Assembly (NCBI GenBank): GCA_002340265.1
Contig: DDLT01000057.1
Span: 1-51,926, forward strand
Source: Lentisphaeria bacterium UBA2565
GTDB taxonomy: Bacteria > Verrucomicrobiota > Lentisphaeria > UBA2565
Length of the DNA: 51,926 bases
Reading direction: 5' to 3'
Below are positions 7,598 through 48,090 of the stretch, in pieces. How positions within the stretch are numbered: the stretch's first letter is position 1; the number at the start of each line of letters is the position of its first letter. Under the pieces are notes generated by a model. The model did not search any database. It saw nothing but the letters and a program-made list of their open reading frames with translations, and was not told the DNA's origin. The translations under genes were made by a program, and so were the position numbers.

Positions 7598-7603
7598 TCT
7601 CAA

Positions 7604-7632
7604 CTATCAGTCAGCAGTGAACAGTTATCAGT
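7604..7632. repeat. Heptad-periodic low-complexity tract (nnnCAGT x4)
   Basis: CAGT at 7608, 7615, 7622 and 7629. Confidence 0.7.
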
Positions 7633-7685
7633 TTTTAATGAATAAAAAGTGAAAACGTAAATCACTGGTGGCTAAGGAAGTCATT

Positions 7686-8186: not shown

Positions 8187-8207
8187 AAAAGCAAAGCCGT
8201 GAGATTT

Positions 8208-8684
8208 AACCACGAATGATTCGAATGAAACGAATAAGGGCTCTTTATGAGTGAAATTTTATTCAAAACTGAATCGTATGATATTATTGGTTCTTGTTTT
8301 AATGTTTACAACAATATTGGACATGGTCTGCTTTAACCTATTTATCAAGAGTCGCTTGAATTGGAATTTGATGAGCAACTTGTTCCATTTTGTGCTCAAA
8401 AAGAGTTGGATATTTATTACTGTGGAACCCTGTTAAAGAAAAAATATATCCCCGATTTTATCTGTTATGGAAAGATTATTGTAGAGATAAAATCAGTAAA
8501 GGTTTTGTTACCAGAACACGAGGCTCAGCTTTTCAACTACTTAAGAATAACTGGAATGAAACTTGGCCTCTTAGTTAACTTTGGCTGTTATCCTAAATTG
8601 GAATACAAACAAATAGTCTGTAATACGATTCTTTAGTTTTTAAAAAATTCGTCTCATTTGATTGATTCGTGGTTTAAAATGTGA
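8208..8684 (+). mobile_element. Non-autonomous cassette of about 477 bp inserted in a terminator loop. It has 31-nt imperfect terminal inverted repeats, a flanking 15-bp direct duplication, and carries a GxxExxY gene.
   Basis: AAAGCCGTGAGATTT occurs at 8193-8207 and again at 8685-8699. Left arm 8205-8235 (TTTAACCACGAATGATTCGAATGAAACGAAT) matches the reverse complement of 8647-8677 at 26 of 31 positions. Confidence 0.5.
8247..8636 (+). pseudogene. GxxExxY family protein (PD-(D/E)XK-like, 23S-IVS-associated family) with TAA replacing the signature Glu
   Basis: ATG at 8247 gives MSEILFKTESYDIIGSCFNVYNNIGHGLL*PIYQESLELEF..., in the same frame as track ORF 8361..8636. The motif G-L-L-(E)-P-I-Y carries TAA at 8334-8336 where GAA is expected. 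Confidence 0.75.
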
Positions 8685-8715
8685 AAAGCCGTGAGATTTT
8701 TGCTCTCACGGCTTT
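8685..8715. terminator. Bidirectional intrinsic terminator between convergent genes
   Basis: Perfect 12-bp stem: AAAGCCGTGAGA (8685-8696) with TCTCACGGCTTT (8704-8715). A/T runs on both sides. Confidence 0.7.
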
Positions 8716-9731: not shown

Positions 9732-9849
9732 AACAGTCTCAATTTTATCATTTTAGTTGATCGATGCCTTCCTGAGGTTCGATGCGAAATTGAAAGTATA
9801 CTGTTTTGGTGTCATTTGCAATGAATTGAAGCAAAGTAATCTAAATACA

Positions 9850-9885
9850 AAAAGCCGTGATTGATTTCTCAGTTCACGGCTTTTT
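9850..9885. terminator. Intrinsic terminator downstream of leuD
   Basis: AAAAGCCGTGA (9850-9860) pairs with TCACGGCTTTT (9874-9884), flanked by A and T runs. Confidence 0.65.
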
Positions 9886-9926
9886 AACTTATGTAAAGTG
9901 CGATGGGCAAAAGGTACTAAAAGTTT

Positions 9927-9975
9927 AACCAGTTAGTCACCTAACTATCTAGATAACTAACCACCCAAATAACTA
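9927..9975. repeat. G-poor AAC(T/C)-word tract; one arm of the inverted pair bracketing leuD
   Basis: AACTAACCACCCAAATAACTA (9955-9975) matches the reverse complement of 10530-10550 at 18 of 21 positions. Confidence 0.6.
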
Positions 9976-10512
9976 TTTTGCTATCATTCCGGTTTTGCGG
10001 GCGTGCTCGAAGATTCCGCCGTCGTCAATTACCGGTTTTACATCACCCATGTCGCGAAGATCATAAACTGATCCGTCGGCTTTGGTGATAGTGTTGCTTG
10101 CAAGATCGATTGTAACTTCTTCGCCAGTTGTAAACTTTTCTGTAATACAGTCTGGAGTTTCAACTGGATAAAGCTCGCCGGTTGCAATGCAGTTACGGAA
10201 GAAGATTCGTGCGAATGACTGCGCGATTACAGCTTTACAGCCGGCAGCTCCAAGTGAAATTGGCGCGTGTTCGCGTGAAGAACCGCAACCGAAGTTTTTG
10301 CCAGCAATTACGATGGCGTATTCGGTTTTCATTTCACCTTCTTTTACATATTTATCATAACTGTCTGGAAGACCGATTAGGGCGTAAGAACCAAGCTCTT
10401 CGTACTCTTCTGGAACTGTTGGTACAAGAGTCAGATAGTTTGCTGGAATAATCTGATCGGTATCAATGTTGTCGCCGACAACAAATACTTTTCCTTTAAT
10501 AATATCACTCAT
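9973..10512 (-). CDS. leuD: 3-isopropylmalate dehydratase small subunit
   Basis: GKNFGCGSSREHAP motif and aconitase swivel-domain pattern. Located downstream of leuC. Confidence 0.85.
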   Translation of the reverse strand: MSDIIKGKVFVVGDNIDTDQIIPANYLTLVPTVPEEYEELGSYALIGLPDSYDKYVKEGEMKTEYAIVIAGKNFGCGSSREHAPISLGAAGCKAVIAQSFARIFFRNCIATGELYPVETPDCITEKFTTGEEVTIDLASNTITKADGSVYDLRDMGDVKPVIDDGGIFEHARKTGMIAK

Positions 10513-10675: not shown

Positions 10676-11986
10676 TTATTTGACAAATTCACGTGGGTCT
10701 GTGATGAATCCGGTTAGTGCGGATGCCGCAACTGTCAATGGCGATGCCAGTACAACTTCACCAGTTTTTGAACCCATTCGTCCAATGAAGTTACGGTTTG
10801 TGGTACTGATACAACGGTCTGAGTTGTTGATTCGTCCGTAGGTATCAACTGGTCCGCCAAGACATGCTGCACATGATGGAGGAGCTGGCTTTTCACAACC
10901 TGCTTCTTCGAATACTTCAACAAGAGTTTTACCGCTTGCAAGTTTTGTTGTTTTCATCAGCTGTTCAACTTCACGAGTTGCAGGAACTAGGAATGTGTGG
11001 ATTTTCACTTTGTGTCCTTCCATCAATTCCGCTGCACGGATGAAGTCTTCGATTTTACCACCAGTACAGCTTCCGATGTAGGCGCGGTCAACTTTCATAT
11101 CGCCACAATCTTTCGCGTACGCTTTGTTGTCTGGCGAATGCGGAAGTGCAACTACCGGATCAAGGTTTGCGATATCAAATTCGTAAGTTGATTCATAGCT
11201 CGCGTCTTCGTCAGAGTGGAAGCAGGTGAACTCTTTGTTGTGAATATTACGTTCGTTCACGTATTTCATGGTGATTTCATCTGGTGCGATGATACCATTT
11301 TTACCACCGGCTTCGATTGCCATGTTACAGATGGTGATACGTTCGTCCATTTCCATGTCTTCAAGTGTTGAACCGCAGAACTCCATTGCCTGGTATGTTG
11401 CGCCGTCTACACCAATTGTGCCGATGATTTCAAGAATAATATCTTTCGCCATCACGTGTTTCGGCATTTTCCCGTTTAGGATGAACTTTTTAGAAGCAGG
11501 TACTTTTACAAGAAGTTTACCAGTTCCCATAAGGAATCCGGCATCTGTATTACCAATTCCGGTTGCAAATGCACCGAATGCACCGTGTGAGCAAGTGTGT
11601 GAATCGGTTCCGAAAATCACTTTACCCGGCTGAACGTGTCCTTCCTGTGGAAGTGCAACGTGGCAGACACCTTTGTAGTTGTCTGTCCCCGGCTGGTAGT
11701 AGTATGGAAGTTCTGCTTCTTCAGCGAATTTTGTCATGAATGCCACGTTACGGTGACACATTTTGTCTTCTGTGTAGATGTAGTGATCTGGAATAATCAC
11801 GACTTTGTTTTTGTCCCAAGGCATTGCGTCTTCACCGAATTCGCGGCGAAGGACACCAACAGTTCCCGGTCCGCAGACGTCGTGTGTTAGAAGAATATCA
11901 GCATTTACCCAGATGTTATCGCCGGGTGCTACAGACTCTTTGCCGGCTGCATTGGCAAGAATCTTTTCGGTAATTGTCATTCCCAT
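10676..11986 (-). CDS. leuC: 3-isopropylmalate dehydratase large subunit (short, archaeal-like/homoaconitase-like type)
   Basis: Fe-S ligand motifs DSHTCSHGAFG, GSCTGG and NRNFIGRMG. ATG at 11986 is preceded by GGAG. The track start at 11998 is a TTG. Confidence 0.85.
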   Translation of the reverse strand: MGMTITEKILANAAGKESVAPGDNIWVNADILLTHDVCGPGTVGVLRREFGEDAMPWDKNKVVIIPDHYIYTEDKMCHRNVAFMTKFAEEAELPYYYQPGTDNYKGVCHVALPQEGHVQPGKVIFGTDSHTCSHGAFGAFATGIGNTDAGFLMGTGKLLVKVPASKKFILNGKMPKHVMAKDIILEIIGTIGVDGATYQAMEFCGSTLEDMEMDERITICNMAIEAGGKNGIIAPDEITMKYVNERNIHNKEFTCFHSDEDASYESTYEFDIANLDPVVALPHSPDNKAYAKDCGDMKVDRAYIGSCTGGKIEDFIRAAELMEGHKVKIHTFLVPATREVEQLMKTTKLASGKTLVEVFEEAGCEKPAPPSCAACLGGPVDTYGRINNSDRCISTTNRNFIGRMGSKTGEVVLASPLTVAASALTGFITDPREFVK

Positions 11987-12002
11987 GATGAACTCCAATT
12001 TT

Positions 12003-12030
12003 GTGAATAATGAATAATGAAAAGTGAATA
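12003..12030. repeat. Heptad tract TGAATAA TGAATAA TGAAAAG TGAATAA
   Basis: Four consecutive 7-mers immediately upstream of the leuC start region. Confidence 0.65.
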
Positions 12031-12395
12031 ATCTTATTTCTATAAGTTCTAAATTGCGTTATTGCTCAAAATAAAGAGCTGTTTATTAAAGCAACAAAGA
12101 AATAATGCAATAAAGAAATCTTGTATAAATTATTTTACAGCCCGTAATTTAGCCATTTTTTGACAAATTTCTCATTGAAACTGAGATATTTATGAAATGT
12201 GTTAATTTTGTGATTCGATAGCTGTTTTTTGTTTTGTTTAAGAAAGAAAAGCTTTGAGACGATGTTTGGTGCGAAATTGGCTAAAAAAACCTTAAAACGC
12301 AAATAAACACGTTTTTTGGCGTTTTTTGTTCTGAAAGTTTGTCTCGGCTGTTTGAAAAAGCCGTTGTCGTCGTTATTTTTCTTTGCTTTATAGTT

Positions 12396-12465: not shown

Positions 12466-15006
<2,541 letters not shown>

Positions 15007-15053
15007 AGGTATCAGGCGATGGGCGTTAGGCATAAGGAAAACCTAGTAACAGC
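15007..15053. repeat. Heptad tract (AGGnnnn units); left arm flanking the four-helix-bundle gene
   Basis: AGGTATC AGGCGAT GGGCGTT AGGCATA AGGAAAA. 15022-15037 matches the reverse complement of 15454-15469 at 14 of 16 positions. Confidence 0.7.
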
Positions 15054-15083
15054 GTCCTTGTTTGAATAATAAAAAGTTTTCTT

Positions 15084-15440
15084 ATGAGTGGAAAGTTTAG
15101 AGATTTAAGAGTTTGGCAGAGAAGTAAAGCACTTGCTGTTGAAACTTATCGTGCCACAACTGGTGAGTTTTGGGATAGAGACTATGATTTAAGGCGTCAA
15201 ATTCGACGTGCCGCAGTAAGTGTCCCTTCCAACATTGCCGAAGGTGATGGAAGAAGAAGTGATAAAGATTCTTGTCGCTTTTTCTTAATTGCCAATGGTT
15301 CATTGTCTGAACTTTCCACACAATTAGAAATTTCAATGGAAATTGGATACTTGAGTAAGGAGGCTTTTCTAGCTTTCGAAAGTGAAATTCGAGAAATAGG
15401 GCGAGAGCTTGGAGCATTAATTAAGGCACGAAGAGGGTAA
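15084..15440 (+). CDS. Four-helix-bundle protein (23S rRNA intervening-sequence protein family)
   Basis: RVWQRSKALAVETYR...RRQIRRAAVSVPSNIAEGDGRRSDKD...FFLIANGSLSELSTQLEI matches the family signature (SIpsNIAEG.gR.s..e...Fl.iA.GS..E). Confidence 0.85.
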   Translation: MSGKFRDLRVWQRSKALAVETYRATTGEFWDRDYDLRRQIRRAAVSVPSNIAEGDGRRSDKDSCRFFLIANGSLSELSTQLEISMEIGYLSKEAFLAFESEIREIGRELGALIKARRG

Positions 15441-15483
15441 CTGTCACCCTACGCCTTACGCCTAAAGCCAGATGCCTAAAAGG
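15441..15483. repeat. Heptad tract (Cnnnnnn, ...GC|C units); right arm flanking the four-helix-bundle gene
   Basis: CTGTCAC CCTACGC CTTACGC CTAAAGC CAGATGC CTAAAAG. Confidence 0.7.
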
Positions 15484-15491
15484 AAATTATT

Positions 15492-18167
15492 ATGGACGAA
15501 ATTAATGAAAATACAGAAGTAGAAGTTATGGAGGATGCGATCTCTTATAACGATATTCCAGTGAATATCGAAGATGTGATGCATACCAACTACCTTCAAT
15601 ACTCTTTGAGTGTAAATATCGGGCGTGCGATTCCAGATGTACGCGATGGTTTGAAACCGGGTAACCGCCGTATTCTTTATGCGATGCATAAACTTGGTCT
15701 GACTAAGAGTCGCGGATTTGTTAAAAGTGCACGTGTGGTCGGTGAAGTAATCGGTAAATATCACCCACATGGTGACCAGGCTGTTTATGATACAATGGTT
15801 CGTATGGCTCAGGACTTTAACATGTCTGTGCCGCTTGTTGATGGTCAGGGTAACTTCGGTTCGATTGATGGTGATAACGCCGCGGCTCACCGTTATACAG
15901 AGTGTCGTATGGAACGTACTGCTGAGGAACTTCTAGTTGACCTGGAACGCAACACAGTTGACATGGCACCTACTTTTGATGAAAGCATGTTGGAGCCGAC
16001 TGTGCTTCCTGCCCGTTTCCCGAATATTCTGGTAAACGGTGCGACTGGTATCGGTGTGGGTATGGCGACAAGTATTCCTCCTCACAACCTTGGTGAAGTG
16101 GTTCGTGGTACAATTGAACTTATCGACAATCCGGCAATCACAACTGCTGAGTTGATGCAACATGTTCCTGGTCCAGACCTTCCAACAGGTGCATCGATTG
16201 CGGGTCTTCGTGAAATTGTAAAACTTTACGAAACTGGTCGCGGAATCATTCGTATCAAAGCGAAAGCTACAATCGAAGAAAAGAAAGACGGTTCAGAACA
16301 GATTGTCATTACCGAGATTCCTTATGCGGTGAATAAAGAGCGTGCGATTAAAAAGATTGCCGACCTTATCCGCGATAAAGTCATTACCGGAATTCGTGAC
16401 ATTACCGATGCGTCTTCAAAACGTTTGAAAGACAATCCATTTGGTATCAAAATTGTCATTGATGTGAAACGTAACGCGTCGGCAAATGTGGTATTGAATC
16501 AGCTTTATAAACACACACCACTTGCTTCAAGTATGGGATGTCAGCTTCTTGTGATTCACAAGAATCGTCCTGTAACAATGAACCTGAAACAGGTACTTCA
16601 GGCGTATATTGACCACCGCTGGGAAGTGATTCACCGTCGTAACCTTTTTGATCGTGAAAAGGCTCAAGAACGTGCTCACATTTTGGAAGGTTTGTTGAAA
16701 GCTGTTGATAACATTGATGAAGTTGTAAAAATCATCAAAGAGTCTCGCACAAGTGAAGAAGCTGGAGCAGCTCTTCGTCAACGTTTTGAACTGAGCTTCA
16801 AACAGGCGAAAGCGATTCTTGCAATGCGTTTGAGTCAGCTTACCGGACTGGCAATTGATACGCTACAGTCTGAATATGACGAGTTGATGGAACGTATCGC
16901 TTATTTGACTTCTCTGATTGAAAGTCGTGAATTGACAATGGGCGTTGTGCGTGAAGAGCTTGAAGAAATTCACAAGAAATATGCTCAGGATCGTCGAACT
17001 GAATTGATTCCTGGTGAGTCTGAAATCAACCTTGAAGACCTAATTGCGCGTCGTGTGGTAGCGATTACGGTTTCAAATACCGGCTACATCAAGCGTATGA
17101 ATATGGATGAATTCCGTAAACAGAACCGTGGTGGCAAAGGTGTGATTGGTATGAAAACCAAAGAAGATGATCACGTTGAACATCTTTTCACTGCCTGTAC
17201 GCATGATTACATTCTGTTCTTTACTAACAAAGGTCAGATGCGCTGGCTGAAAGCTTACGAGATTCCAGAGTCAGGACGTACCGGTAAAGGTCAGGCGTTG
17301 GTGAATCTGTTTGAACTTGAAGAAGGCGAACAGATCCGTGCAATGTTGACAACCGATTCACTTGACGTGGAAGAGCGTTATGCGATTATGGCAACTAAAA
17401 ACGGTGTAATTAAGAAGACTGAACTGAAAGCGTTCCGTCATCTACGTAAGAAAGGAATCCGTGCGCTGAATATTCGTGAAGGCGATGACCTAATTGACGT
17501 AGCGATTACCGACGGAACAAATCACGTGATGCTTTCAAGTGCACTTGGTAAAGCATGTCGTTTCCGTGAAACCGACGTTCGTCCGATGGGACGTACTGCG
17601 GCGGGTGTTCGTGGTATCACACTTGCCGAAGGTGACAGTGTCGTAGCAATGTCGGTTCTAAATCCGACTGCTGATATTCTGGTAGTGACCGAACTTGGTC
17701 AAGGTAAACGTACTAAAGTTGGTGAAGGAAATGCTGAAGCCGATGCGAACATTGTCGGCGGATATCGTTTGACAAAACGTGGCGGTAAAGGTGTGACCTC
17801 TGTAAAACTCGGCGATGATGACAAAGTAGTTGCGGCGCTTCAGATTGAAGAAGACTGCGATATCATGATGATGTCAATCAAAGGTCAGATGGTACGAATT
17901 GGTACTGATCAGATTCGTCAGATGGGACGTGCTTGTAAAGGTGTCCGCGTGATGAGTTTCAAAGACAAAGGCGACCGTATCAGTTCTGTTTCTAAAATTG
18001 CCGAAATGGCAGAAGAGGAGACTGAACAAGAACTAGATGAAAACGATAACCCAATTGCTCCAGTGGAAAGTAACGAAGCTACCGCTGAAGCAACAGAAGG
18101 TGCAGAAACTGCACCAACCACAGATGGTCCAGAAGCAACTGAAGACTCAGCAGAAACAGCTGAGTAA
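15492..18167 (+). CDS. gyrA: DNA gyrase subunit A
   Basis: Active-site AAHRYTECRM, quinolone-region GKYHPHGDQAVYD, GyrA-box NRGGKGV, and an acidic C-terminal tail. Confidence 0.95.
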   Translation: MDEINENTEVEVMEDAISYNDIPVNIEDVMHTNYLQYSLSVNIGRAIPDVRDGLKPGNRRILYAMHKLGLTKSRGFVKSARVVGEVIGKYHPHGDQAVYDTMVRMAQDFNMSVPLVDGQGNFGSIDGDNAAAHRYTECRMERTAEELLVDLERNTVDMAPTFDESMLEPTVLPARFPNILVNGATGIGVGMATSIPPHNLGEVVRGTIELIDNPAITTAELMQHVPGPDLPTGASIAGLREIVKLYETGRGIIRIKAKATIEEKKDGSEQIVITEIPYAVNKERAIKKIADLIRDKVITGIRDITDASSKRLKDNPFGIKIVIDVKRNASANVVLNQLYKHTPLASSMGCQLLVIHKNRPVTMNLKQVLQAYIDHRWEVIHRRNLFDREKAQERAHILEGLLKAVDNIDEVVKIIKESRTSEEAGAALRQRFELSFKQAKAILAMRLSQLTGLAIDTLQSEYDELMERIAYLTSLIESRELTMGVVREELEEIHKKYAQDRRTELIPGESEINLEDLIARRVVAITVSNTGYIKRMNMDEFRKQNRGGKGVIGMKTKEDDHVEHLFTACTHDYILFFTNKGQMRWLKAYEIPESGRTGKGQALVNLFELEEGEQIRAMLTTDSLDVEERYAIMATKNGVIKKTELKAFRHLRKKGIRALNIREGDDLIDVAITDGTNHVMLSSALGKACRFRETDVRPMGRTAAGVRGITLAEGDSVVAMSVLNPTADILVVTELGQGKRTKVGEGNAEADANIVGGYRLTKRGGKGVTSVKLGDDDKVVAALQIEEDCDIMMMSIKGQMVRIGTDQIRQMGRACKGVRVMSFKDKGDRISSVSKIAEMAEEETEQELDENDNPIAPVESNEATAEATEGAETAPTTDGPEATEDSAETAE

Positions 18168-18429: not shown

Positions 18430-19494
18430 ATGGGAGAGAAAATAATGACTAAAAACAAATTGATTCGTAATTCCACTGCTGAGTTTTTGATTTTTACTGG
18501 GCAAAGTGGGGAAAGCAGTATTGAGGCTCGTTATGAAGACGAGACAATTTGGCTTTCTCAAAAATTGATGGCAGAGCTTTTCGATGTAAATGTTAGAACC
18601 ATAAACGAACATTTGCAGAATATTTACAAAAGTGATGAACTTACGAAAGAGTCAACTATCCGGAATTTCCGGATAGTTCAAACCGAAGGAAACCGTCAAG
18701 TAACACGTAAGGTTGACTTCTACAACCTTGATGTGATTATTTCTGTTGGTTATAGGGTAAATTCAGTTCGTGCCACGCAATTTCGTCAGTGGGCGACAGC
18801 TGTATTGCGTGACTTTGCAGTTAAAGGCTATGTGATCGACCGTGCAAGAATGGAAAACGGGGTTTTTCTTGATGAAAATTATTTTGAGACTCTTTTAGAG
18901 GAAATTCGTGAAATTCGTCTCTCGGAGCGTCAATTTTATCAAAAAATCACTGATATTTATGCTACGAGTGTGGATTATAACAAGGAAGCTCCAACTACGA
19001 GGAAGTTTTTTGCTAAAGTTCAAAATAAATTACATTTTGCAATTCATGGCCACACAGCAGCAGAATTGATTGTCGAACGAGCAGATTCGACTAAGGATAA
19101 AATGGGACTTTCAAACTGGAAAAACTCTCCCGATGGTAAAATTCTTAAATCGGATGTTTCAGTAGCGAAAAACTATTTGAGAAAGAGTGAAGTTGATAAT
19201 TTGGGGAAAATTGTTAATGCCTATCTGGAATTGGCTGAGTTGAGAGCAAAGCGACAGATTCCGATGACCATGGAAGATTGGGCTAAAAGACTTGACCTTT
19301 TCTTGGAGCTCGATGATTGGAATGTTTTAGAAGGTTCAGGTAAAATTACTTCAGCAGTCGCCAAAGATTATGCTGAAAGTGAATTTGAGAAATACCGGAT
19401 TGTCCAAGACAAACTTTTTGAAAGTGATTTTGATAAAATACTACGCCTTTTAGAAGATTCTGTCGAATACACAGTAAAACCTAACAACAATTAG
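18430..19494 (+). CDS. RhuM family (virulence-associated, DNA-binding-like) protein
   Basis: IEARYEDETIWLSQKLMAELFDV...NLDVIISVGYRVNSVRATQFRQWAT is the typical RhuM N-terminal pattern. Alternative start at ATG 18445 with GGAGAG upstream. Confidence 0.75.
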   Translation: MGEKIMTKNKLIRNSTAEFLIFTGQSGESSIEARYEDETIWLSQKLMAELFDVNVRTINEHLQNIYKSDELTKESTIRNFRIVQTEGNRQVTRKVDFYNLDVIISVGYRVNSVRATQFRQWATAVLRDFAVKGYVIDRARMENGVFLDENYFETLLEEIREIRLSERQFYQKITDIYATSVDYNKEAPTTRKFFAKVQNKLHFAIHGHTAAELIVERADSTKDKMGLSNWKNSPDGKILKSDVSVAKNYLRKSEVDNLGKIVNAYLELAELRAKRQIPMTMEDWAKRLDLFLELDDWNVLEGSGKITSAVAKDYAESEFEKYRIVQDKLFESDFDKILRLLEDSVEYTVKPNNN

Positions 19495-19497
19495 AAC

Positions 19498-20418
19498 ATG
19501 ACTAAATTCTGTTATTTTTATGATCGCAATGGCGATACCATTGAACTTTCGAAGGCGGAGGCGCTTCATCTTACTCAAGGTGAAATTGTCGCGCATGGTG
19601 TTATCGTTAGTGACACGGCTTGTGATTGGCAACGTTCAGCTTTTATTCGTGGTGGTGGAAAGTTGATTGCTTCTGGAAAAAATCTTGATGCACTTTGTGA
19701 ACGCCTTGAAGAGTTAAATGTTTCCGCAAATAATTTTAAGATTGTGTCGGAGCCGATTCCACGTTTGCGAAAGGGGGATCATCATGCAATTATTCAGGTG
19801 GCTGATTCGATCAAAGGCCCTGTTGACCTTAAAAATCCGGAAACTGTTTTTGTGCTTATTATAAGTGGTGAAGGATGCTGGTTGAGTGAAAGTGATGAAG
19901 AAGCCGAACAAGCTTGGAAAACTTTAAAATATAAACCTTTTGCTTTTTGTAATGCGTTGCCGATTAAGATTGCACGAGCGATGATTAATTTGACGGCTAC
20001 ACATGGCGATTCTGTTTTTGATCCGTGCTGCGGGTCGGGAACAATTCCATTGATGGCGGCTGAACTCGGCTTTTCTGCAATGGGTGGTGACAAGAGTTGG
20101 CCGAATTTGAATATAAGTCGAAAGAATATAGCTCATTTCGGTTTTGATGCAGAACTGCTACAGGAAGATGCCACGGAAACTAACCGGGCTACAGGCTGCA
20201 TTGTGACGAATCTGCCTTACGGCTTGTATTTGCCGATTTCTGAAGAGGTATTGATTGGAATGCTAAACAATTTTAAGGGGTTAACTAAAAAGGTCTCGAT
20301 TGTGACAACTGACGATATTTCTGAGAAGTTGACAGATTGCGGCTATCAAATCAATCAGCATATTTTGTCTAAAAGTAACAATTTGGTACGTCATATTTAT
20401 TTGACTGAGGTGATTTAA
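19498..20418 (+). CDS. SAM-dependent methyltransferase (UPF0020/Trm11-like, NLPYG catalytic motif)
   Basis: Motif I is VFDPCCGSGTIPLMAA. Motif IV is IVTNLPYG. Starts 3 nt after the rhuM stop. Confidence 0.7.
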   Translation: MTKFCYFYDRNGDTIELSKAEALHLTQGEIVAHGVIVSDTACDWQRSAFIRGGGKLIASGKNLDALCERLEELNVSANNFKIVSEPIPRLRKGDHHAIIQVADSIKGPVDLKNPETVFVLIISGEGCWLSESDEEAEQAWKTLKYKPFAFCNALPIKIARAMINLTATHGDSVFDPCCGSGTIPLMAAELGFSAMGGDKSWPNLNISRKNIAHFGFDAELLQEDATETNRATGCIVTNLPYGLYLPISEEVLIGMLNNFKGLTKKVSIVTTDDISEKLTDCGYQINQHILSKSNNLVRHIYLTEVI

Positions 20419-23182: not shown

Positions 23183-23215
23183 CTGTTAACTGCTGACTAC
23201 TTACTGTTAACTGTT
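23183..23215. repeat. Heptad tract (CTG/ACTG every 7 nt); arm flanking the ECF sigma gene stop
   Basis: CT(G/A) trinucleotide (CTG, CTA at 23197) at 23183, 23190, 23197, 23204 and 23211. The reverse complement reads AACAGTT AACAGTA AGTAGTC AGCAGTT. Confidence 0.7.
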
Positions 23216-23803
23216 TTACTCCAGCATTTCACGGAGATTTCTTATTTCCGCATATAATTTCTGCTTTACACGATTTTTATAGATGTAAATTGTGTTCTCT
23301 TCCAAACCGAGCCGTTGAGCTGTTTCTGCAACTGGTTCGTTCCTTAAACTGGCTTGAAAGCACTCCATCGCCTGGGCTGACACTTTTTCTTTAATGGTAT
23401 TGAATGCCCGTTCGGATATATACTTTTCCCATTCATTATGAATTATCTTGTTAATCTCTGCCTTATTGTGACCATCGCTGAATGACTTGAACTCTTCACG
23501 ACTCTTTAAAAGATTTTTATTGGCTTTGATAAAGCTGATAACGGTATTACGGGTAATTGTATAAAGCCAGTTTCTAAAGTAGCCCTTTTTCTGATTATAA
23601 TCGAAGTTCGGAAGTGCCTGCCAAATCTTTAAAAGTGTTTTCTGCGCCAGATCATCACAATCAGACTCATTTACACCCATCTTGATAATTATCGAATAGA
23701 TGAACTTCTTGTAGTAACGATAAAACTCTTCCCACGAACTCTCCGAATCGGAATTCTTGAGTTTCTTGAGCAGTGTTTGTCTTGTGAGATATGTATCAGT
23801 CAT
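23216..23803 (-). CDS. ECF-type RNA polymerase sigma factor (kinase-associated type)
   Basis: Region 2 (DDLAQKTLLKIWQALPNFD...FRNWLYTITRNTVISF) and region 4 HTH (ETAQRLGLEENTIYIYKNRVKQKL). No adjacent anti-sigma gene. Confidence 0.8.
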   Translation of the reverse strand: MTDTYLTRQTLLKKLKNSDSESSWEEFYRYYKKFIYSIIIKMGVNESDCDDLAQKTLLKIWQALPNFDYNQKKGYFRNWLYTITRNTVISFIKANKNLLKSREEFKSFSDGHNKAEINKIIHNEWEKYISERAFNTIKEKVSAQAMECFQASLRNEPVAETAQRLGLEENTIYIYKNRVKQKLYAEIRNLREMLE

Positions 23804-23807
23804 TTTT

Positions 23808-23830
23808 TTCAGTTATCAGTTAGTAGTTAC
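23808..23830. repeat. Heptad tract (TTCAGTT ATCAGTT AGTAGTT); arm flanking the ECF sigma gene start
   Basis: 23810-23827 matches the reverse complement of 23196-23213 at 16 of 18 positions. Confidence 0.7.
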
Positions 23831-24001
23831 ATCTAGCCTTTCGCATCTCGCATCAAAAAAATCAAAAAAACTTAAAAAAGTTGTCCAATAGCAATAAGTG
23901 AAAAGTATACTGGTTTGAATGATTCTTAAAATATCGTGTGATATTTGAATGTCAATTGAATGATTTTTTATAAACAAAAACAACAACATGAGAGGAAGAT
24001 T

Positions 24002-27000: not shown

Positions 27001-27008
27001 CTCTATAA
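24002..27008 (+). pseudogene. Secreted GEVED x2 / Fn3 / Ig-like / LamG protein with the shared C-terminal domain, disrupted by a 1-nt insertion (about 25115) and an in-frame TAG (25773-25775)
   Basis: Track ORFs 23960..25123, 25104..25775 and 26013..27008 join into one protein colinear with 29940..32957. SVTL|RDRTNGGGW repeats the earlier SITLRDNVNGTGW after a +1 shift. The TAG aligns with the conserved LamG Trp (FMTWVNV in the paralogue). Confidence 0.75.
26379..27008 (+). repeat. Shared C-terminal domain module, copy 1
   Basis: TPAIGLELSLEGTELVWTVEDE...EGWNLIAITSDDADLETLKDETVGVLWGWNG...LNLGWNMVGPV...GGKGYWIFSL. Long near-identical nucleotide runs with copies 2 and 3. Confidence 0.85.
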
Positions 27009-27080
27009 GGTTTCAGGTTACAAGTTGTAAGGTTGCAAGTTTTTAACCTGTAACCTTTAACTTTAAAACCTTTAACTTAG
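27009..27080. repeat. Heptad tract that switches from GGTT/AGTT words to AACC/AACT words
   Basis: GGTT or AGTT at 27009, 27016, 27023, 27031 and 27038. AACC or AACT at 27045, 27052, 27059, 27067 and 27074. Confidence 0.7.
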
Positions 27081-27127
27081 ATAAAATTTCTTCTCCCTAG
27101 AATGCGGACGGTTTTCCGCATTCGGTT

Positions 27128-27157
27128 AGCTGCGATCGAAAGGTCGCAGCTTTTTTT
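27128..27157 (+). terminator. Intrinsic terminator
   Basis: AGCTGCGA-tcgaaagg-TCGCAGCT followed by seven T. Confidence 0.8.
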
Positions 27158-27243
27158 GTTTAAACAATTGAACTGCGGTGAGAAGTCGATAGCTTAGAAT
27201 ATCTATTAGATTGAGTTAAACTTTATTTTACATGTTAGTTTTT

Positions 27244-32957: not shown

Positions 32958-33055
32958 TCGTCCTATGTATTACGTAGTACGCACTACGTAGCACTTATTA
33001 CGAAATAAAAAATGCTCTCTCCCTGGATGGGGTGTGTTGTCCCGTCCGTTCTTAT

Positions 33056-33084
33056 GGCTACGACTGAAAGGTCGTAGCCTTTTT
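33056..33084 (+). terminator. Intrinsic terminator
   Basis: GGCTACGAC-tgaaag-GTCGTAGCC followed by TTTTT. Confidence 0.8.
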
Positions 33085-33145
33085 GGGTATTGATTGCTGT
33101 AAATGTACAGAAAGAGTTTATTAAAATAATAATAGGATACTAAAA

Positions 33146-37027: not shown

Positions 37028-37119
37028 TCGTCCTATGTGTTACGTAGTACGTACTACGTAGCACTTAATGTGAAATAAAAATTTCTTCTCCCTAGAATGT
37101 TTGAGTTCGACATTTGCTC

Positions 37120-37148
37120 AGCTGCGATCGAAAGTTCGCAGCTTTTTT
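37120..37148 (+). terminator. Intrinsic terminator
   Basis: AGCTGCGA-tcgaaagt-TCGCAGCT followed by TTTTTT. Nearly identical to 27128..27157. Confidence 0.8.
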
Positions 37149-37311
37149 ATTGAGTATTGTGCAGTTACCAATGTAACAATTTTGAGAAAAAAGTTGTTAA
37201 AATTCCTCAAATCCTAGTGATTTAGTTGATTCCTTTTTTATATTACGCGGTCTTGTGAACTCTGACGTGAGTAATTTTAAAGACGAATTTAATTTTTTAT
37301 GGGGAGTTTTT

Positions 37312-48035: not shown

Positions 48036-48090
48036 TTTAGTTAGCAGTTAGTAGTAAACAGTTAGCAGTAAATTTAAACTTTAAATTTAA
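48036..48090. repeat. Heptad tract (TTTAGTT AGCAGTT AGTAGTA AACAGTT AGCAGTA AATTTAA ACTTTAA)
   Basis: AGT at 48039, 48046, 48053, 48060 and 48067, followed by A/T heptads. Confidence 0.7.

Follow-up and report, generated by a model that had tools for sequence, protein, structure and literature searches.

A hairpin-bounded four-helix-bundle gene cassette in the gyrB-gyrA spacer of a Lentisphaeria bacterium and its turnover among relatives

A four-helix-bundle gene lies between gyrB and gyrA

We analyzed a 51,926-nt stretch of DNA from the Lentisphaeria bacterium UBA2565 (contig DDLT01000057.1, assembly GCA_002340265.1; hereafter, the window), in which the gyrase genes gyrB and gyrA are separated by a small insert that carries a gene for a four-helix-bundle protein (Table 1). 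An earlier note on this DNA had described this gene as the only one between the two gyrase genes, which is borne out by the list of open reading frames (ORFs), Pfam and NCBIfam. The size given there for the insert, about 475 nt, could be refined to 471 nt. Both flanks of the gene are heptad-periodic tracts of opposite sense, as had been noted, with a period of 7 on either side and about four 7-nt repeats in each of the inverted arrays. Of the 16 positions of 15022-15037, 14 match the reverse complement of 15454-15469, as the note had stated, and deletion of the insert leaves TAA-AAAAGGAAATTATT-ATG at the junction.

Table 1. Features of the gyrase locus and of a second cassette in the window (positions are those of the whole window)
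Feature	Positions	Strand	Basis or remarks
gyrB, 840 aa	12484..15006	+	ORF list; Pfam HATPase_c, DNA_gyraseB, Toprim, DNA_gyraseB_C
gyrB TAA stop	15004-15006		directly followed by the cassette stem
Whole cassette, 471 nt (5' arm, PF05635 ORF, 3' arm)	15007..15477	+	closing stem of the minimum free energy (MFE) fold, duplex statistics
5' arm, G-rich sense strand	15007..15037	+	heptad array AGGTATC AGGCGAT GGGCGTT AGGCATA AGG
Four-helix-bundle protein gene, 118 aa, PF05635 / TIGR02436	15084..15440	+	Pfam, NCBIfam
3' arm, C-rich, reverse-complement sense of the 5' arm	15447..15477	+	heptad array CCCTACG CCTTACG CCTAAAG CCAGATG CCT
gyrA ribosome-binding region (AAAAGGAAATTATT) and ATG	15478..15494	+	just outside the stem; identical in the metagenome contigs L006-L008
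gyrA, 891 aa	15492..18167	+	ORF list; Pfam GyrA domains
Cassette with PF13366 (PD-(D/E)XK, GxxExxY) ORF, 476 nt	8205..8680	+	inverted arms TTTAACCACGAATGA... and ...ATTCGTGGTTTAAA

The flanking arrays are predicted to pair into a closing stem

The MFE fold of the 500 nt around the spacer (15001-15500) is closed by the two arms, with 15007-15031 pairing with 15453-15477 and A15007 paired to U15477. This closing stem consists of 21 interrupted base pairs between 25-nt arms (MFE z = -6.6), and its base follows the gyrB stop codon by 1 nt and precedes the gyrA ATG by 14 nt. As an RNA duplex, the two flanks reach -39.3 kcal/mol in comparison to -22.2 +/- 3.8 kcal/mol for dinucleotide shuffles, none of which was as stable (0 of 2000). 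Random positions at equal spacing in the window equalled the duplex energy in 0.2% of cases, and pairings with 3' flanks from other loci in 1.4%. The stem that had been suggested from the letters is therefore recovered in silico, with pairing beyond random expectation.

Two finer details of the earlier note stood only in part. The facing segments GTAACAG and CTGTCAC are present, match at 6 of 7 positions and are used in the two-flank duplex, but they do not take part in the full-length MFE fold and are not conserved in the orthologous cassette of L006. The near-identical TAAAGG (15004-15009) and TAAAAGG (15477-15483) at the outer junctions are likewise present, but they consist partly of the arm and partly of the gyrA Shine-Dalgarno sequence, and a target duplication could not be demonstrated. 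Viewed as a transposon or miniature inverted-repeat transposable element (MITE), the cassette has inverted termini, this overlapping pair as its sole direct repeat, and no alignable empty site.

Neither a sigma-70-like promoter nor an intrinsic terminator was predicted inside the cassette by a promoter and terminator scan of the + strand. Searches against Rfam, at the gathering threshold for the whole window and permissively for 14900-15600, returned no meaningful family and no rRNA. An apparent 24-nt pairing of the start region of the four-helix-bundle gene with 15299-15322 was also seen, where both sides are constrained by coding.

The encoded protein is a conserved member of PF05635

The 118-aa protein scored 114.9 bits against PF05635 (E = 2.5e-33), above the curated cut-off of 33.8, and 114.6 bits against TIGR02436 ("four helix bundle protein"; cut-off 24, E = 2.4e-33). 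Its profile match in the PDB was 2GSC (E = 1e-28). The AlphaFold2 model has a predicted local distance difference test score (pLDDT) of 95.5 and shows four long helices, with template modeling (TM) scores of 0.89 to 2GSC (Xcc0516), 0.81 to 2RLD (BT_0352) and 0.77 to bAvd (4DWL). On the basis of this model, the protein is confidently predicted to be a four-helix bundle. PDB entries of the solved homologs hold five chains each, and Xcc0516 is known to be a homopentameric toroid (cited in PMC4990558).

GxxRxxxSxxxNxxE is a conserved motif of the family (PMC3936711). The residues R42, S46, N50 and E53 are present in the window protein and are invariant or nearly so in the family alignment, and the first glycine is replaced by Q39 in this subfamily. 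Comparison of the ORF with that of L006 gave a ratio of nonsynonymous to synonymous substitution rates (dN/dS) of 0.07 at a dS of 0.84, and we therefore conclude that the protein is kept by purifying selection. No known defense-system model in PADLOC was matched by the window protein or by its counterpart in locus L005. The family alignment also showed that many PF05635 ORFs read through into their own 3' repeat array, which adds short C-terminal tails of variable sequence, encoded by the repeats, such as PITHDP, SPPRAQSPAPHA and THHP (including the L022/L033 group).

Inverted heptad and octad arrays recur around PF05635 genes

A metagenome scan by similarity to the window protein yielded 80 diverse PF05635 loci, 72 of which had both 120-nt flanks and were scored for the match of the 5' flank to the reverse-complemented 3' flank; as a control, flanks from different loci were paired. 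The median score of the loci's own flanks was 29.5 in comparison to 15 for the control, and 57% of the 72 loci exceeded the control's 99th percentile. The same flanks compared in direct orientation had a median of 15, as did 139 neighboring genes in the same loci, only 1.4% of which exceeded this percentile. Among the loci with significant stems are also L095, L005, L080, L065, L094 and L009.

The arms are tandem arrays of 7- or 8-nt units, with a median of about 4.2 units per arm, and often touch the start and stop codons of the ORF. No tandem periods other than 7 and 8 were found on the 5' side, and both arms shared their period in 19 of 20 loci. On the sense strand, G prevails upstream of the ORF (34% G, 12.5% C), and the downstream side is the mirror image of this. 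The downstream neighbor is co-oriented with the PF05635 gene in 86% of the loci, at a median gap of 46 nt, and the upstream neighbor in 83%.

While this shape is shared, the unit sequence varies between cassettes, even between two cassettes that lie 1.1 kb apart on one contig (L019). The similarity of flank 6-mers co-varies with protein similarity (0 of 1000 permutations). Arms of the GGCNNNN type go with related proteins (57-92% identity) in three contexts, namely gyrBA and the regions upstream of an NTP_transf_5 gene and of a cysN-like gene, and the cassette with GGRTTCAA octads was found again in several different contexts. As the repeat unit tracks the protein subfamily across contexts, we conclude that the arms travel with the gene.

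Particular insertion sites also recur. PF05635 cassettes with different arms were seen at rfbB-rfbA (L013, L019) and upstream of prfA (L038, L055), with the neighbors identified by eye from the flanking sequence, as well as upstream of gyrA or between the B and A genes of a type IIA topoisomerase (L065, L080). These recurrences stem from unrelated metagenomic organisms, and the arms differ.

Cassettes are replaced at the gyrB-gyrA junction

Comparison of gyrB-gyrA junctions in relatives, as the earlier note had proposed, revealed both presence or absence of an insert and outright replacement of one cassette by another (L093, L095, L003-L008). GyrA assigns the window to Lentisphaerae/Victivallales. 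A GyrA scan of genome contigs gave best species representatives with only 50-58% identity; close relatives were retrieved by exact-protein look-ups of the cassette proteins. Three metagenome contigs (L006-L008) carry the same cassette as the window (cassette A), with a four-helix-bundle protein of 92% identity and a longer 5' array of about nine units. In L093 (71% protein identity), cassette A directly follows gyrB and its 3' array is expanded to at least 14 units. The paired arms are retained in the orthologous cassettes.

L095 is syntenic with the window (91% amino acid identity in GyrB and 96% in GyrA), and its gyrA is 96.6% identical at the nucleotide level to that of L007, a carrier of cassette A. 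Nevertheless, its junction holds an unrelated PF05635 cassette (17445-17915), which encodes a 121-aa protein of another PF05635 subfamily between GAACATC/GTTCGAT heptad arms and occupies the same boundaries, the gyrB stop codon and the gyrA Shine-Dalgarno sequence, as the cassette of the window. Since cassette A is shared by the window and L006-L008, the L095 insert looks like a recent replacement. A third cassette, with TAATCGT/AACTCTT arms and an ORF with an internal deletion, is found in a distant member of the Lentisphaerae (L005; GyrA 50% identical). No cassette is present in L004, whose GyrA is 95% identical to that of L005, or in L003 (GyrA about 58% identical).

Two further observations were made on these contigs. 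In another Lentisphaerae metagenome-assembled genome (L002, 4600-5150, minus strand), a PF05635-like gene of 107 aa lies on the strand opposite to gyrA, about 900 nt upstream of it. This gene is flanked by AAGGGGTAAGAGG / CCTCTTACCCCTT repeats, and an additional hairpin of the same units lies upstream. The contig L006 is probably chimeric: past position 940, after about 250 nt of gyrA, its match to the window and to L095 ends, and the gene calls beyond match COX3 and COX4 families.

A sister cassette carries a PD-(D/E)XK gene

The window contains a second cassette, with a PF13366 ORF, that the earlier note had found to be nearly the same size as the gyrBA insert. This holds with refined coordinates (476 vs. 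471 nt; Table 1), and the two have the same build. The window copy of this ORF is interrupted by an in-frame TAA (8335-8337) at the conserved glutamate. A 15-nt direct repeat, AAAGCCGTGAGATTT, flanks the cassette (8193-8207 and 8685-8699) and represents the left half of a terminator hairpin that the cassette interrupts. In L095-L098 the terminator is whole, and the same cassette with its arms, encoding an intact protein of 89-91% identity, is located one gene upstream (in L095, regions 9840-10440 and 11030-11080). A heptad tract at 7598 of the window sits in the spacer where these relatives carry the PD-(D/E)XK cassette. Cassettes of one type thus carry two unrelated small proteins, and such cassettes change position.

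Other heptad tracts and genes in the window

At least 11 intergenic tracts with a period of 7 occur in the 52-kb window, several of them unpaired. Since such tracts are common in the spacers of this genome, periodicity alone is not diagnostic; the inverted pairing around a small ORF is. TAACTGA-type arrays occur at 7598, 23183, 23802 and 48037. Two of them (23183-23217 and 23802-23832) are inverted around a gene of the extracytoplasmic function (ECF) sigma-70 family (23216-23803, minus strand), where TAACTGA repeats lie directly upstream of the ATG, as in Beggiatoaceae. Unpaired spacer arrays were observed at 7598-7640 (CAGTNAN type), 11998-12035 (TGAATAA type) and 48037-48071 (CAGTTAG type).

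Hairpins of inverted or palindromic heptads that contain no ORF, empty counterparts of the cassette arms, occur right after the stop codons of upstream genes at 27003-27080, 32959-32998 and 37029-37070. Each is followed by a conserved element of about 80 nt (27076-27160, 33003-33090 and 37068-37155), which is composed of AAAAATTTCTTCTCCCTAGAATG, a variable hairpin and the terminator GCTGCGATCGAAAGGTCGCAGC-T6, with a mean column identity of 77% and no match in Rfam. Directly downstream of gyrA (18430-20418) lie a gene of the RhuM family and one resembling DNA/RNA methyltransferases, which together may constitute a small accessory island.

Interpretation and alternative explanations

At fixed operon junctions, cassettes of this build come and go, relocate and displace one another. 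We consider it likely that the gyrBA insert is a small promoter-less hairpin cassette of the same kind as the ORF-bearing intervening sequences (IVSs) of 23S rRNA, placed here in the spacer of an essential operon. With greater confidence still, we regard it as a bounded cassette that hitchhikes in the operon and not as an ordinary fixed gene. The earlier note had made the same distinction, and it is supported by the IVS-like anatomy, the family-wide build and the turnover at the site. Its suggestion of an IVS-type element in an essential mRNA agrees with an anatomy like that of the Coxiella IVS and with the occurrence of this build across the family outside rRNA. RNase III-type cleavage, which it also suggested, is plausible by analogy, and selection on the RNA stem itself did not find support (see below).

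We propose that the cassette is transcribed within the gyrBA mRNA, where its arms would pair into the interrupted stem of about 21 bp and loop out the four-helix-bundle message. Looping would place the gyrA ribosome-binding site next to the gyrB stop codon and thereby lessen the damage to the host operon. RNase III might then cut the stem, as it does in the homologous rRNA elements, which would give rise to separate gyrB, four-helix-bundle and gyrA RNAs. For the gyrBA stem, we advance such cleavage tentatively, by analogy, and lean slightly against it. Spacers between essential co-transcribed genes may be safe harbors for such cassettes, as they would tolerate only precise deletions.

Several observations weigh against the cassette being an element of the IVS kind. 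The family sample was picked by similarity to the window protein, and one subfamily is over-represented in it. About 40% of the family loci have no significant inverted repeat within 120 nt, and heptad tracts adjoin other genes too, such as the ECF sigma gene. The spacers of L005, which has a cassette, and L004, which has none, are not alignable, and no clean empty site or target duplication could be defined. Further, the arm mismatches in 41 stems comprise 44 G·U-compatible pairs, 49 A·C pairs and 102 transversions; G·U is not in excess over A·C, and the stems therefore show no sign that pairing in the sense RNA is selected for. The similarity of the arms may instead be kept by a process at the DNA level, for example common origin or slippage and conversion.

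A serious rival builds on this last point. The cassette could be a cargo-carrying, MITE-like unit with an incidental RNA stem, whose arrays act in the DNA as terminal repeats or recombination sites for a trans-acting enzyme, or take part in replication template-switching at hairpins. The lack of a G·U bias and the frequent transversions fit this explanation, as do the unstable copy number of the arrays, the relocation and precise replacement of cassettes, and the PD-(D/E)XK sister cassette that lies within a 15-nt direct repeat of half a terminator hairpin. However, co-orientation with host genes in 86% of the loci and the constant position of the G-rich arm on the upstream side of the ORF point to a constraint at the transcript level; moreover, no transposase or integrase is found within about 12 kb, and the homologous rRNA cassettes are demonstrably processed as RNA. 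We consider a purely DNA-level element possible but rather unlikely, and a role of the arms in the DNA (mobility, slippage or conversion) is compatible with our model of a transcribed hairpin cassette.

That the protein is instead a host factor tied to type IIA topoisomerases, such as a co-expressed gyrase modulator with regulatory repeats, appears very unlikely to us. PF05635 genes do adjoin genes for gyrase or topoisomerase subunits in five independent cases (the window clade, L095, L005, L065 and L080), and the ORF is under strong purifying selection. Yet these five cases involve unrelated PF05635 subfamilies with unrelated arms, the gene is absent in the close relatives L004 and L003, and the L005 copy has an internal deletion. 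Moreover, cas loci and rRNA harbor the same build, and so do rfbB-rfbA and the regions upstream of prfA and of a cysN-like gene. Coincidental complementarity of flanks in a low-complexity, heptad-rich genome might be expected from the at least 11 period-7 tracts, several unpaired, but it is effectively refuted by the duplex energy, which no shuffle and hardly any random position reached, by the paired arms retained in orthologous cassettes and by the family-wide excess over neighboring genes (57% vs. 1.4%).

Beyond the hairpin cassette model for gyrBA, PF05635 cassettes and the similarly built PF13366 cassettes could represent widespread, so far unrecognized autonomous mini-elements. The pentameric protein, a homolog of the RNA-binding factor Avd of diversity-generating retroelements, would recognize the arrays of about 4-5 heptad or octad units of its own cassette and direct maintenance, processing or site-specific exchange at hairpin-forming junctions (rRNA helices, gyrBA, rfbBA, prfA) without a known recombinase. 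If true, such recognition would account for the link between repeat unit and protein subfamily and for the exchange of unrelated cassettes at identical boundaries. We offer this extension as speculation and judge it improbable as it stands.

Comparison with known systems

The role of the S23p protein and the mobility of ORF-bearing rRNA IVSs have remained an unexplained curiosity for 30 years. The 23S IVS of Coxiella burnetii is 428-444 nt long, similar in size to the gyrBA cassette, and has a terminal inverted-repeat stem of 28 bp and an S23p ORF in sense orientation (PMC4990558). Two to three tandem GACAGAT heptamers precede the S23p ATG in strain-variable copy number, and the stem is cut by RNase III (PMC4990558). 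With the 23S rRNA IVSs of Coxiella and Leptospira, the gyrBA cassette shares the S23p / PF05635 protein, a sense ORF in the loop, complementary termini that close the element as a stable stem of about 20-28 bp, tandem heptamers of variable copy number upstream of the ATG, and the lack of a promoter of its own, so that host transcription is needed. It differs in its location, which is the spacer from the gyrB stop codon to the gyrA Shine-Dalgarno sequence and not helix 25 or 45 of the 23S rRNA gene, and in its heptad arrays, which are present in both arms. Its ORF is under strong purifying selection, whereas that of Coxiella is decaying and probably untranslated.

The accessory protein Avd of diversity-generating retroelements (DGRs; bAvd, 4DWL; DGR ribonucleoprotein, 8UB7) has a homologous four-helix-bundle fold (TM 0.77). 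Identity with Avd was rejected, as the window protein scored 24.9 bits against NF033474 (cut-off 80). We also rejected a DGR at this locus: a scan of 18 other ORFs within about 12 kb detected no reverse transcriptase domain, and template and variable repeats were not searched for. The ORFs scanned likewise contained no recombinase, integrase or transposase domains.

Integron cassettes are also small, promoter-less single-ORF units that are swapped at a fixed position and transcribed by the host. The gyrBA cassette, in contrast, has no integrase and no attI, and an imperfect inverted repeat on both sides of its ORF takes the place of a single 3' attC; on account of these repeats and of the neighboring ORFs, which have no integrase or recombinase domain, we did not assign it to the integron cassettes. 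PF05635 cassettes, unlike those of integrons, are inserted in many different operon spacers. The Correia elements of Neisseria and the enterobacterial repetitive intergenic consensus sequences or intergenic repeat units (ERIC/IRU) are inverted-repeat elements in transcribed spacers, and their RNA hairpins can be RNase III substrates and alter the expression of flanking genes. Unlike the PF05635 cassettes, they lack an ORF and show a fixed consensus and TA duplications, and they do not have tandem heptad arrays as arms.

Intergenic tandem heptamers are known from Cyanobacteria as short tandemly repeated repetitive (STRR) sequences. TAACTGA heptamers form intergenic arrays in Beggiatoaceae, Cyanobacteria and Bacteroidetes (PMC4679880). 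As in the PF05635 cassettes, these are short arrays of 7-nt units that touch start codons in intergenic regions. They have, however, been described as direct repeats with a possible post-transcriptional role and not as inverted pairs around a gene family, and the arm units of PF05635 cassettes are, unlike them, cassette-specific.

Earlier work thus covers the protein family, its occurrence in rRNA IVSs, its homology to Avd and the heptamers of Coxiella. Our literature search returned no description of inverted 7- or 8-nt arrays that bracket PF05635 or GxxExxY genes outside rRNA, of co-variation between such arrays and the protein, or of one cassette taking the place of another at a fixed operon junction. 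The occurrence of PF05635 genes in cas loci has been reported, and these genes were interpreted there as functional partners (PMC3936711). Our analysis implies for annotation that PF05635 genes "inside" cas loci or gyrase operons are probably passengers and not functional partners.

Experiments could start from a protein whose polar motif is conserved and which has a cognate repeat, from defined stems in the mRNAs of essential genes, and from natural strain pairs that differ only by a cassette. The comparison suggests that the rRNA cases represent a small section of a far larger population of hairpin-bounded single-gene cassettes in the spacers of essential operons of many phyla, which have a shape with inverted 7- or 8-nt repeat arrays in common and clearly turn over at fixed sites.

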